DNA of 44,816 nt from Veterinaerplatzvirus T145P1, in sequence record OZ035767.1; one strand, 5' to 3'. Below, one piece after another: positions 37,747 to 44,534 of this stretch. How positions within the stretch are numbered: the stretch's first letter is position 1; every line of letters starts with the position of its first letter. The position numbers and the translations under genes are program-made. The notes under the pieces were generated by a model. It worked only from the letters and a program-made list of their open reading frames with translations. It made no database searches and was not told where the DNA came from.

Positions 37747-37790
37747 TAACTATACATTGAAAGCCCCGAAGGGCTTTAGCAATTAGTGCT
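37747..37790 (-). promoter_or_regulatory. conserved palindrome-promoter element (minus strand)
   Basis: Reverse complement: AGCACTAATTGCTAAA - 22 nt containing a GC hairpin - TATAGTTA, then CGAAACGAAACGAAAC leader. Confidence 0.6.
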
Positions 37791-37937
37791 GTTTCGTGCT
37801 TTCTCTATCGCCTTGAGCATAATCTCGTGACTTTCCAGTAAGTCCTCTCGGAACCAATCTCCACAAGGCCAGCCTTTTCCGCTATAGGCACTTATGACCT
37901 CGAGATCGAAATAATTTATCTCAGATGGTAATAGCAT
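37776..37937 (-). CDS. hypothetical small protein
   Basis: 53-aa ORF, ATGA-coupled; stop codon lies inside the palindromic element. Confidence 0.35.
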   Translation of the reverse strand: MLLPSEINYFDLEVISAYSGKGWPCGDWFREDLLESHEIMLKAIEKARNSTNC

Positions 37938-38179
37938 CACTTCACCTCATCAAAAGTTGCAATCCCAGGAATAAACATCCCAACCTTCCAGCCTGCAATG
38001 GCAATCCATCCAGAATCGTGCTTGTGCGGTCGCTCAGCGCCATTAATCACCCATTCGTTCGGGATTGTCTTGCCGTTAATGATTAGAGGCTCAGCGTCGT
38101 ATACAGAGCCTTTAACGAATGGTGTTAAGGCTTTCTTGTCAGTGCTATTGATAACGTTAGTGCAGATTATTTTAGTCAT
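37937..38179 (-). CDS. hypothetical protein
   Basis: 80 aa. Confidence 0.5.
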   Translation of the reverse strand: MTKIICTNVINSTDKKALTPFVKGSVYDAEPLIINGKTIPNEWVINGAERPHKHDSGWIAIAGWKVGMFIPGIATFDEVK

Positions 38180-38373: not shown

Positions 38374-38553
38374 TCAAATAAATGGCAAGCATTCGACGCA
38401 GCCAAGCCCATCACAGCACATGAATTCATCTTCTGACTGGAATTGCTTTGCTAAATCAATGTCTAGCCTTCCGCGCACCACAAGGTCGGTGTAATCTTCA
38501 TTAAGCCCAATCAGTGCGCACTCGTTACGTAACTCATCTTTATTCTTTTTCAT
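38374..38553 (-). CDS. hypothetical small Cys-rich protein
   Basis: 59-aa ORF with C-terminal CCDGLGCVEC cluster. Confidence 0.35.
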   Translation of the reverse strand: MKKNKDELRNECALIGLNEDYTDLVVRGRLDIDLAKQFQSEDEFMCCDGLGCVECLPFI

Positions 38554-38716
38554 TTATCCTGGCCTTTTAAATTATAACGCTCTCTCAGAACTTCAACCCA
38601 TTCTTGCGCGTCATTCTCTCTCATGAAGAAACTTAAATTTGGGTACTTGTGAAACCCTTTAAGTTCAACTATCCAATGACCACCTTCGTAACTATAACTA
38701 ACTTTCTTCTCTGTCA
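38554..38716 (-). CDS. hypothetical small protein
   Basis: 53-aa ORF, first gene of the minus-strand operon, stop/start coupled. Confidence 0.35.
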
Positions 38717-38926
38717 TTTTGTTACCTTTTGAGTTTTTTTATTATCGACATCTCTTCAACGTACTCGCTACAACTCGGGATTTTACTCCCGGCCCGGCAT
38801 CCTAACAAAAGGACCCGATCGGCGCTTTGGTGGGTGAGGTAACGCTTCCTCACATTGCGCGGTAGTATTTACTCCTTTTGGTCTCTTTCGAGAGTGACTC
38901 AGAGTCTGCTACCGTGTCGATGAGAT

Positions 38927-38973
38927 TAAGTATACGCATAGTTAGCCACACTGTCTTTAGCAAAAAGTGCTAT
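38927..38973 (-). promoter_or_regulatory. conserved palindrome-promoter element (minus strand)
   Basis: Reverse complement: ATAGCACTTTTTGCTAAA - about 23 nt - TATACTTA. Confidence 0.5.
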
Positions 38974-38987
38974 TCGTTAGATTTATG

Positions 38988-39075
38988 TATTGTTGCAGAT
39001 ATTGCAATGATTCACTTGATTATTGCACATACAGCAATATTGCTTCCGATGCAATGATGTTTTTGATTGTTGCGA
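38988..39075. repeat. cluster of ATTGCA/TGCAAT half-sites and short palindromes
   Basis: ATTGCAAT (39001-39008), AGCAATATTGCT (39033-39044), plus repeated TTGCA/GCAAT units in the divergent control region. Confidence 0.6.
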
Positions 39076-39260
39076 AAAGTGAAATTAAGTGGTGAGTGAG
39101 TGAATGAAAGATGGATGGACTACCATACAAGTTGATTTTTACCAATCTATGGGAGCCTCACGGATATACGCGTATCCTCCGTATACTCAGTGTCGTCACA
39201 AAAGTTAGTGACCACTAACCTACGTTTTTACGCGATATATACACACGATATACAATATAA

Positions 39261-39326
39261 TATCTATATATATCAACCTTTTACTTTATTATTATTATTA
39301 TTATTATATATATGTATACTGTGTAT
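39261..39326. repeat. AT-rich repeat copy B with longer (TTA)n microsatellite
   Basis: Same unit as 20693-20750 with about two extra TTA triplets. Confidence 0.8.
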
Positions 39327-39533
39327 ACCGGTAATTGGTGAGATTATTGATATGTTCCGCGCAGATATTCTGACACCTGTCAGAAATGGATGGCATTGTA
39401 GGAATAAAAGGCACATATATAGGGAATGGCTTCAAAAATCTGTACACATCGGATACGGCACATTTACAACCAGCAATGGAGGGGCCTCTGGAGGCAAGAA
39501 GCGTATCCATGATAAAATAGACGAAAATATACA

Positions 39534-39566
39534 TTGACCGACACGTAAATAGATGGCAATATAGCA
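39534..39566 (+). promoter_or_regulatory. candidate early promoter with canonical -35
   Basis: TTGACC followed by GATGGCAATATAG -10 region and CACTGAAACGAAG leader; lacks the palindrome. Confidence 0.45.
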
Positions 39567-39602
39567 GTCACTGAAACGAAGTAAAACAAACGAGGTATCA
39601 AC

Positions 39603-40151
39603 ATGCAGAAAGTAACACTAGGTGAAGTTATCCGTGAGATGGTGCGCAACGCGATGGTGTCCGAGAGTGGTGAGTTTAAAGTTCCGGTTAGCCAGATATT
39701 CAAACTGGTTCGAGGCAAGGAATACCCTGAAATGGTGTATGACGAAGATACTAGTGAGATCCTCAACCTGGCAGATAGGGCGATGCCGGAACTAAAGAAC
39801 TCATACATCTATAACACAGTGTCGAGAATGACAGAGCTTCGCGATGCTAATAAGCGAGCGAGATATAAGTTCATCTGGATTGATGATGACGGAGAGCAAA
39901 CAAGGCCCGGTAGCTTCGACGGTGATGGCGCTGATAAATACCTGGTCATATACATTGAGAACGGCGCGCACTGGACTGGGAGTCGCGAAAAGAAAAAGCA
40001 GGAAGCGGAGAAAGAGGCGGCTATCATTGAAAAGTTCAAGTCTAGACTGCTCAAGCTGTCACCAAGTGTTGCTGGCTTGGAAGGTGAAGAACTTAAGGGC
40101 GCTGTTACAATGATTAATGCTTATCAGGAAATGATTAAGGAGACTAAGTAG
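39603..40151 (+). CDS. hypothetical early protein
   Basis: 182 aa, RBS GAGGT; first gene downstream of early promoter region. Confidence 0.55.
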   Translation: MQKVTLGEVIREMVRNAMVSESGEFKVPVSQIFKLVRGKEYPEMVYDEDTSEILNLADRAMPELKNSYIYNTVSRMTELRDANKRARYKFIWIDDDGEQTRPGSFDGDGADKYLVIYIENGAHWTGSREKKKQEAEKEAAIIEKFKSRLLKLSPSVAGLEGEELKGAVTMINAYQEMIKETK

Positions 40152-44457: not shown

Positions 44458-44534
44458 GCTCGAGTGGCGAAAGTGGATATCGCAAGAGACTTCTAATCTC
44501 TAGATTGCTGGTTCGAATCCAGCCTCGAGCGCCA
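44458..44534 (+). tRNA. tRNA-Arg (anticodon UCU), CCA encoded
   Basis: Hand-folded cloverleaf with all four stems fully Watson-Crick paired (7/4/5/5 bp); U8, A14, G18G19, U33; anticodon loop CUUCUAA; T-loop TTCGAAT; discriminator G then CCA. Confidence 0.9.

Follow-up and report, generated by a model that had tools for sequence, protein, structure and literature searches.

The genome sequence analyzed here, that of Veterinaerplatzvirus T145P1 (OZ035767.1; 44,816 nucleotides in all, referred to below as the window), belongs to a T1-like coliphage of the family Drexlerviridae and the subfamily Braunvirinae, a placement taken from the taxonomy of a congener. A divergent intergenic region separates its leftward operon, an early operon of small genes that has the gene for a DUF3987 helicase as its last member, from a rightward operon that begins with a DUF7174 gene. 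It is in this region, upstream of the minus-strand operon, that a preliminary description had placed a long, GC-rich structured leader or candidate small RNA (38720-38925).

A consensus scan places an early sigma70-type promoter for the leftward operon at 38929-38957 on the minus strand, with a -35 element (AAGACA, 38957-38952) and a -10 element (TATACT, 38934-38929) that are separated by a 17-nt spacer. This promoter is kept in all T1-like copies of the locus and is also common to relatives that lack the element described below. Just upstream of it, at 38989-39085 on the plus strand, a 20-nt repeat of the TTGCA/TGCAA type (ATTGTTGCAGATATTGCAAT and variants) occurs three times, together with overlapping 24-nt repeats; their words are kept in relatives, and they resemble operators through which the divergent early promoters could be regulated.

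Counting from the -10 element, transcription is inferred to start at about A38921, the eighth nucleotide past the hexamer, and the first ATG of the minus-strand operon in the list of open reading frames (ORFs) is at 38717. The unusual length and composition first ascribed to the leader were both borne out, since this distance is ~204 nt, compared with a leader of only 26 nt behind the same promoter in sibling phages that lack the block, and since GC content is 51% in the element itself and 47-49% in 180-nt segments of this region, against 35-40% on either flank.

Three parts can be distinguished between the predicted start site and the next gene of the operon. The first is a structured RNA of 182 nt (38742-38923, minus strand), the second an A/U-rich linker of 24 nt (38718-38741, minus strand) that carries a ribosome-binding site (AAAGG, 38729-38725), and the third a gene for an orphan protein of 55 amino acids (38550-38717, minus strand, from the ORF list). 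Comparison with sibling phages shows that the RNA, the linker and the ORF form a single cassette (38556-38918, minus strand), of which the small gene is the second half.

Architecture and variation of the 182-nt RNA

The RNA is recognized by a covariance model of the element, R1, at 225 bits (E = 2e-70), with one copy only in the window even when filters are switched off, and the interval of the preliminary description encloses this placement. Its architecture consists of six helices around one junction, which is closed by P1 (38921-38915/38750-38744), a helix that pairs the 5′ end with the 3′ end. Compensatory changes are found in P1 as well as in P2 (38913-38907/38867-38861), P2b (38893-38890/38885-38882, with a GAAA loop at 38889-38886), P3a (38853-38848/38839-38834, with the invariant loop AAGCGUUA at 38847-38840), P4 (38817-38810/38803-38795) and P5 (38794-38788/38779-38772), all on the minus strand, as are the remaining helices. 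Variation in P2a (38905-38901/38875-38871) is mostly of the G-U wobble type (U-A/U-G). Because P3 (GCGC/GCGC, 38860-38857/38825-38822) never varies, and because P6 (38770-38766/38761-38757) shows one wobble change and one mismatch, neither of them compensatory, these two helices are regarded as predicted. Among the features that had been picked out by eye, the hairpin GTGAGG-AAGCGTTA-CCTCAC was located at 38834-38853, where it forms helix P3a, and the CCGGGCC/GGAGT runs are helices P4 and P5.

The stability that had been proposed for this region is also seen in the folding energy of the 182 nt, with a minimum of -59 kcal/mol (z = -2.97) that is equalled by one of 200 shuffled sequences, and the fold predicted from the single sequence is the consensus fold. 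In addition, the tetraloop of P2b stays of the GNRA type (GAAA or GCGA), even where its stem gains a pair, and 108 of the 194 alignment columns show no variation at all, among them several loops and most nucleotides of the junction. Most copies are 182 nt long without insertions or deletions, and five are 183-187 nt. One metagenomic copy (L153, 72-258) has a divergent 5′ end (UGCUUGAAAG...) that cuts P1 to ~4 base pairs; this may be a true variant or an assembly artefact of its 2.3-kb contig.

The model R1 was built from nine distinct copies of exactly 182 nt each, and the final alignment contains 19 copies (18 distinct), the divergent ones having been reached via the neighbouring protein; the model was used to fit alignments A6 and A8, which are nearly gap-free. 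Across the 18 distinct copies, 96.6% of 954 paired cells are canonical, compared with 35-44% when the partners are slid by 1-3 columns, and double compensatory changes occur in 18 of the 53 pairs, distributed over the six helices named above. For example, the closing stem changes from ATCGACA/TGTCGAT to ATCGAAA/TTTCGAT, and P2b changes from TCTC-GAAA-GAGA to TCCC-GAAA-GGGA or TTCC-GAAA-GGAA; compensatory changes are already visible among the copies from nine blastn records. The copies represent a handful of lineages, with changes that fall into about six independent sets, so that only a modest number of compensatory events can be counted as independent. An all-against-all covariation scan for tertiary or pseudoknot pairs was uninformative, as isolated columns covary through shared descent, and weight is therefore placed on the contiguous nested helices and on the slid controls. 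The same fold is thus kept in relatives by compensatory changes, the outcome opposite to the loss of structure that had been proposed as an argument against a functional RNA, and the earlier reading of this region as a structured leader, a small RNA or something riboswitch-like gains clear support from the covariation.

These alignments also indicate which strand is functional. Wobble G-U pairs make up 12.4% of the cells on the minus strand, and they become A-C mismatches on the complement, so that canonical pairing falls from 96.6% to 86.5%; this identifies the minus strand as the functional one, in agreement with the direction of the operon. The asymmetry bears on whether the element acts as DNA, for instance as an origin, a single-strand initiation signal or a protein-binding site, a notion to which its position beside a divergent promoter region with TTGCA-type repeats and the stable folding of both strands in silico might lend some credit. 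We consider this very improbable, given the pairing lost on the complement, the alternation of U-A and U-G at several pairs, and an orientation that always follows that of the transcript (promoter, element, ORF), including in an unrelated phage.

An even less probable view is that the region is a small protein-coding gene, as it is annotated in some GenBank relatives (ACG-M12 gp01 and IMM-001). One frame is indeed open for ~43 codons in all copies, and annotated coding sequences lie there in relatives. However, the 35 variable columns of alignment A4 fall into the three codon phases without periodicity (13/11/11), changes in the open frame are mostly non-synonymous, one copy (L130) has lost the GTG start, there is no ribosome-binding site and no conserved start codon, and 23 of the 35 variable columns sit in helices in which pairing is kept. 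Coding sequences that have been annotated over the RNA, or small ORFs that have been extended into it, include gp01 of ACG-M12 (L004, 1515-1670), ATI17139/ATI17140 of IMM-001 (L005, 1436-1691) and EcG8_035 of G8 (L003, 1351-1551). Since the RNA is non-coding by these measures of codon phase, start codon, ribosome-binding site and helix pairing, such annotations are probably artefacts, and R1 allows correct annotation of relatives for which GenBank carries spurious proteins.

In this family the RNA is better conserved than the protein that it precedes. Mean identity of the RNA is 92.6%, compared with 86.1% in the adjacent ORF and 78.7% at third codon positions; when copies are compared pair by pair, identity is higher in the RNA than in the ORF in 33 of 36 cases. 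It is still 84-99% identical where the protein drops to 40% identity, and it is recognized at 125-228 bits where protein identity is 40-48%; R1 scores are 219-227 bits ahead of the genes for P0006 proteins, which share 48% identity with the window protein, and 125-147 bits ahead of those for P0008/P0015 proteins, whose identity to it is 40-42%. We are highly confident that this minus-strand element is genuine, a structured RNA that has been conserved.

A portable cassette of RNA and small gene

The small ORF that follows the RNA is a real coding gene, as its first and second codon positions are more conserved than the third. Its 55-aa product has no match in Pfam, PHROG, NCBIfam or PADLOC, and its predicted fold (AlphaFold2, pLDDT 83) is three beta strands followed by a helix, for which only weak fold matches were obtained. 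Searches by sequence and by profile, over 5.8 and 1.8 billion proteins, recovered a family of only 13 clusters, whose members are 49-58 aa long and as little as 40% identical to the window protein. The RNA lies upstream of a gene of this family in all 19 retrieved loci, in the same orientation and at a distance of 17-30 nt; the linkers are unrelated in sequence between lineages, and each contains a purine-rich Shine-Dalgarno sequence. No terminator was found between RNA and ORF. The stop codon of the small ORF overlaps the start of the next gene (ATGA, 38553-38550), which suggests translational coupling. In relatives without the cassette, this next gene has a strong GAGGAG ribosome-binding site of its own. 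The P0008 protein (L150, 2501-2650) ends in ...NRNSTNC, and an unrelated early ORF of 54 aa in the window (37776-37940, minus strand) ends in ...ARNSTNC, which may reflect a recombination seam or chance.

The cassette has a sporadic distribution. In vB_EcoS-12210I, 16 bp take the place of 38556-38918, and homology extends through the promoter down to 38919; phage 2725-N35 has a different gene, of 75 aa, and a short leader at the same site. Of 136 phage records with blastn matches to the 1.4 kb around the site, nine contain the block, namely those of T145P1 (three records), G8, ACG-M12 (two records), SCS31, ECH1 and IMM-001, and six T1-like loci found via the neighbouring DUF7174 gene are all without the element. 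One carrier (L149) is not T1-like, as its flanks match podophages of ~43 kb from the T7 supergroup, including vB_EcoP_P64441, which is classified in the Autographivirales, Slopekvirinae. In this carrier the cassette is directly behind a strong sigma70 promoter of its own (TTGACT-17-TACATT), and two relatives (L156 and L157) have another module, of 344 bp, at the cassette site. The RNA and the ORF are therefore a portable early-gene cassette that occurs sporadically in two unrelated families of E. coli phages, with a distribution that is narrow overall. The preliminary description of a structured leader or candidate small RNA is supported; what could not be seen from the single sequence is that the element is one half of a mobile cassette and no general feature of this operon. 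It is unusual for an RNA to move between phage families with a tiny orphan gene, always in the first-transcribed position.

P1 starts at the seventh or eighth nucleotide past the -10 hexamer in each of three promoter contexts, and from this spacing its first base is probably the 5′-terminal nucleotide of the transcript. Such a location is what one would predict if the fold were a passive module that shields the 5′ end from RppH- and RNase E-dependent decay and insulates the ribosome-binding site, so that a cassette moving between genomes would express well wherever it landed; the fact that the translation start region is not consistently sequestered is also compatible with such a role. We think it unlikely that this is the whole function, because a single 5′ hairpin would suffice for it, whereas the element has 108 invariant columns of 194, a near-constant length and a constraint on the RNA that exceeds that on the protein. 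The invariant junction and loops, the fixed length and the stronger constraint on the RNA argue instead for a specific three-dimensional structure or partner.

Relation to known RNAs

Although few viruses have been studied as much as the T1-like and T7-like coliphages, no Rfam family matches this element. When the whole window was searched with Rfam 15 (4227 models) at the gathering threshold, the only hit was a tRNA-Arg (anticodon UCU; 44458-44534, plus strand; 66 bits), and searches at E <= 10 with the window copy and with the most divergent clade returned only noise. The scan against known families that had been recommended for the candidate RNA therefore assigns it to none of them. The best near-match, c4-a1b1 (RF03163), scored 15.7 bits over 40 nt only, compared with a gathering score of 46.7. 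This model shares with the element a phage origin and a short GC hairpin (CCGGG...CCCGA) that aligns, but its first hairpin is nearly all deleted in the alignment (14 model positions against one base), and the similarity is treated as a chance match.

Other collections were searched with sequence words, with R1 or via the adjacent protein. By blastn, neither the PLSDB plasmids nor 5,426 complete genomes of E. coli contain a counterpart of the element, and exact core 23-mers are absent from IMG/VR and from JGI metagenomes. A 15-mer scan of IMG/VR gave 120 loci that were taken as probable chance matches, judged by the shortness and GC-richness of the pattern alone. When GTDB genomes were scanned with an 18-mer, 7 loci were obtained, all of which the model rejects apart from the seeded word. 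Protein-seeded locus scans of IMG/VR and JGI metagenomes found nothing, and the cassette could be reached only via a protein index (Logan/ENA). Literature searches on Drexlerviridae riboswitches, on structured RNAs of phages and on words of the sequence produced nothing relevant. By these comparisons, the element is a previously undescribed structured RNA that matches no known RNA family.

Several classes of functional RNA were considered individually. ARAGORN predicts no tRNA or tmRNA at the element, and mimicry of a tRNA 3′ end (CACCA) was set aside, as the word varies by lineage (CCACC, CCACU or CCACG). An RNA of a type III toxin-antitoxin system (ToxI-like) was rejected because no tandem repeats are present in 38600-39400 except for (TTA)7 at 39286, and because the downstream protein, of 55 aa, matches no toxin family. 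The ends of the element pair through P1, as do those of a retron msr-msd, yet no reverse transcriptase gene is nearby; the neighbours are ORFs of 55-117 aa without Pfam domains, followed by the DUF3987 helicase.

A ribozyme that cleaves or processes itself, and thereby removes the leader from the mRNA, would account for a conserved core with variable peripheral helices and a GNRA loop, and would need no expression platform. Ribozymes do occur in phage genomes, and the theta ribozymes are one example that has been described (PMC10879173). However, the element matches no Rfam ribozyme model at E <= 10, and since it starts at +1, a ribozyme that cleaves at its 5′ side would have nothing to remove. 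Most known self-cleaving classes are also smaller and less branched than this 182-nt RNA, and overall a ribozyme appears quite unlikely.

Possible functions of the RNA

We tentatively favour, as the best single explanation of these data, a cis-acting, aptamer-like leader of the orphan small-protein gene. In such a leader, transcription would start at about A38921, so that the RNA would form the 5′ end of the earliest transcript made by host RNA polymerase, and the domain would fold co-transcriptionally into a compact aptamer-like body. The folded leader could then bind a conserved partner in cis, either a small molecule or a conserved host factor, and binding might set the output of the small protein through access of the ribosome or through what happens to the mRNA at the A/U-rich linker. 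The effect may also reach downstream early genes, a possibility raised by the overlap of the stop codon of the ORF with the next start (ATGA).

The element has the features by which riboswitches are nominated, including a junction fold with compensatory changes, a near-invariant junction and a fixed association with one gene; the covarying, aptamer-like fold is in a 5′ untranslated region, and the downstream gene family is the same in all 19 loci. It resembles orphan riboswitch candidates and riboswitch aptamers with multi-helix junctions in occupying a 5′ leader and in having a P1 that closes a junction with five hairpin arms, and it shares with riboswitch aptamers conserved junction nucleotides, covarying helices, a single downstream gene family and an RNA that is more conserved than the gene it would regulate. 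The FMN riboswitch (RF00050), which gives no match to the element at E <= 10, is similar in topology only, with P1 and five hairpins of a six-way junction. In contrast to riboswitches, the element matches no model, has no recognizable expression platform, precedes an orphan gene that points to no ligand, and is carried on a mobile phage cassette instead of being placed ahead of a metabolic operon.

The main weakness of the cis reading is that no expression platform is recognizable in the sequence, from which mechanisms based on Rho or RNase E would not be apparent. Neither an intrinsic terminator nor a conserved alternative pairing that would hide the ribosome-binding site was found, and the predicted accessibility of this site ranges from 0.29 to 0.78 with no pattern across lineages. 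Two anti-Shine-Dalgarno pairings that were spotted by eye, CCUUUUG in P4 and GUUACCU in P3a, are not kept across lineages. A pairing between the 3′ strand of P1 and the start codon, which seemed to covary between the window and IMM-001, likewise fails across lineages.

Leaders of other phage early operons offer a comparison. The leader of the lambda N gene contains nutL and an RNase III site, and RNase III sites precede gene 0.3 of T7. Like these, the element is directly behind an early promoter for the host polymerase and before the first early gene, where it could control the translation or stability of the mRNA. They differ from it in being simple hairpins or box elements that are phage-specific, whereas the element is a six-helix junction of strict length that occurs in unrelated phages and is dispensable in siblings. 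The put sequences of HK022 act in cis as antitermination RNAs that modify RNA polymerase, and consist of two hairpins in ~70 nt. They too are folded RNAs after an early promoter, and by analogy the element could act in cis without a platform; however, a cmsearch of the whole HK022 genome with R1 found no match at E <= 10, and siblings transcribe the same operon without the element.

It is also possible, if somewhat doubtful, that the product of this locus is a trans-acting early RNA, freed, for example, when RNase E cuts the A/U-rich linker, that serves as a decoy, sponge or inhibitor of a conserved host target. Its role would be in host takeover or counter-defence, either by itself or in a ribonucleoprotein that includes the small protein. 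We regard this as nearly as likely as the cis leader, on the grounds that no recognizable platform ties the RNA to the ribosome-binding site, that it holds the first-transcribed slot in two phage families, that it is distributed like a sporadic accessory gene (nine of the 136 related records), and that it is far more conserved than the protein, as expected of an RNA with an invariant host target. In the T1-like siphophage and the T7-supergroup podophage alike, transcription from early promoters of the host polymerase begins with this RNA, and the first early slot typically holds anti-defence genes, as with gene 0.3 (ocr) of T7. A base-paired 5′ end would, we infer, also favour stability of a free RNA. 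Against a trans role, there is no terminator or conserved processing signal that would yield a discrete RNA, and strict adjacency to one gene family, within 17-30 nt, is the usual signature of a cis element. In addition, the element has no similarity to chromosomal or plasmid DNA of E. coli, so the RNA is not an obvious mimic of a host RNA, and the protein is not basic and has no recognizable RNA-binding fold.

An extension of this idea, which we consider unlikely, is that the RNA itself is the anti-defence or host-takeover effector, made first and with the small protein as its partner. It would then be an aptamer that sequesters a conserved host immune signal or a factor such as a defence nuclease or the RNA cofactor of such a nuclease, and the cassette would represent a portable, RNA-based counter-defence module common to unrelated coliphage families. 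For the cis leader, as for a trans-acting RNA, the identity of the ligand or partner would either add a class of phage riboswitches or leaders or reveal an RNA-based function in early infection.

The rightward side of the intergenic region has features of its own. An inverted copy of the -10/start region (CGTATACT...) at 39180-39197 on the plus strand suggests a rightward promoter. It is followed by ~400 nt (39200-39600) of AT-rich (28-31% GC), repeat-laden and apparently non-coding sequence before the DUF7174 gene at 39603; if the inverted copy is a promoter, this operon would have a second very long leader. The same stretch contains a perfect intergenic (TTA)7 microsatellite at 39286-39307.
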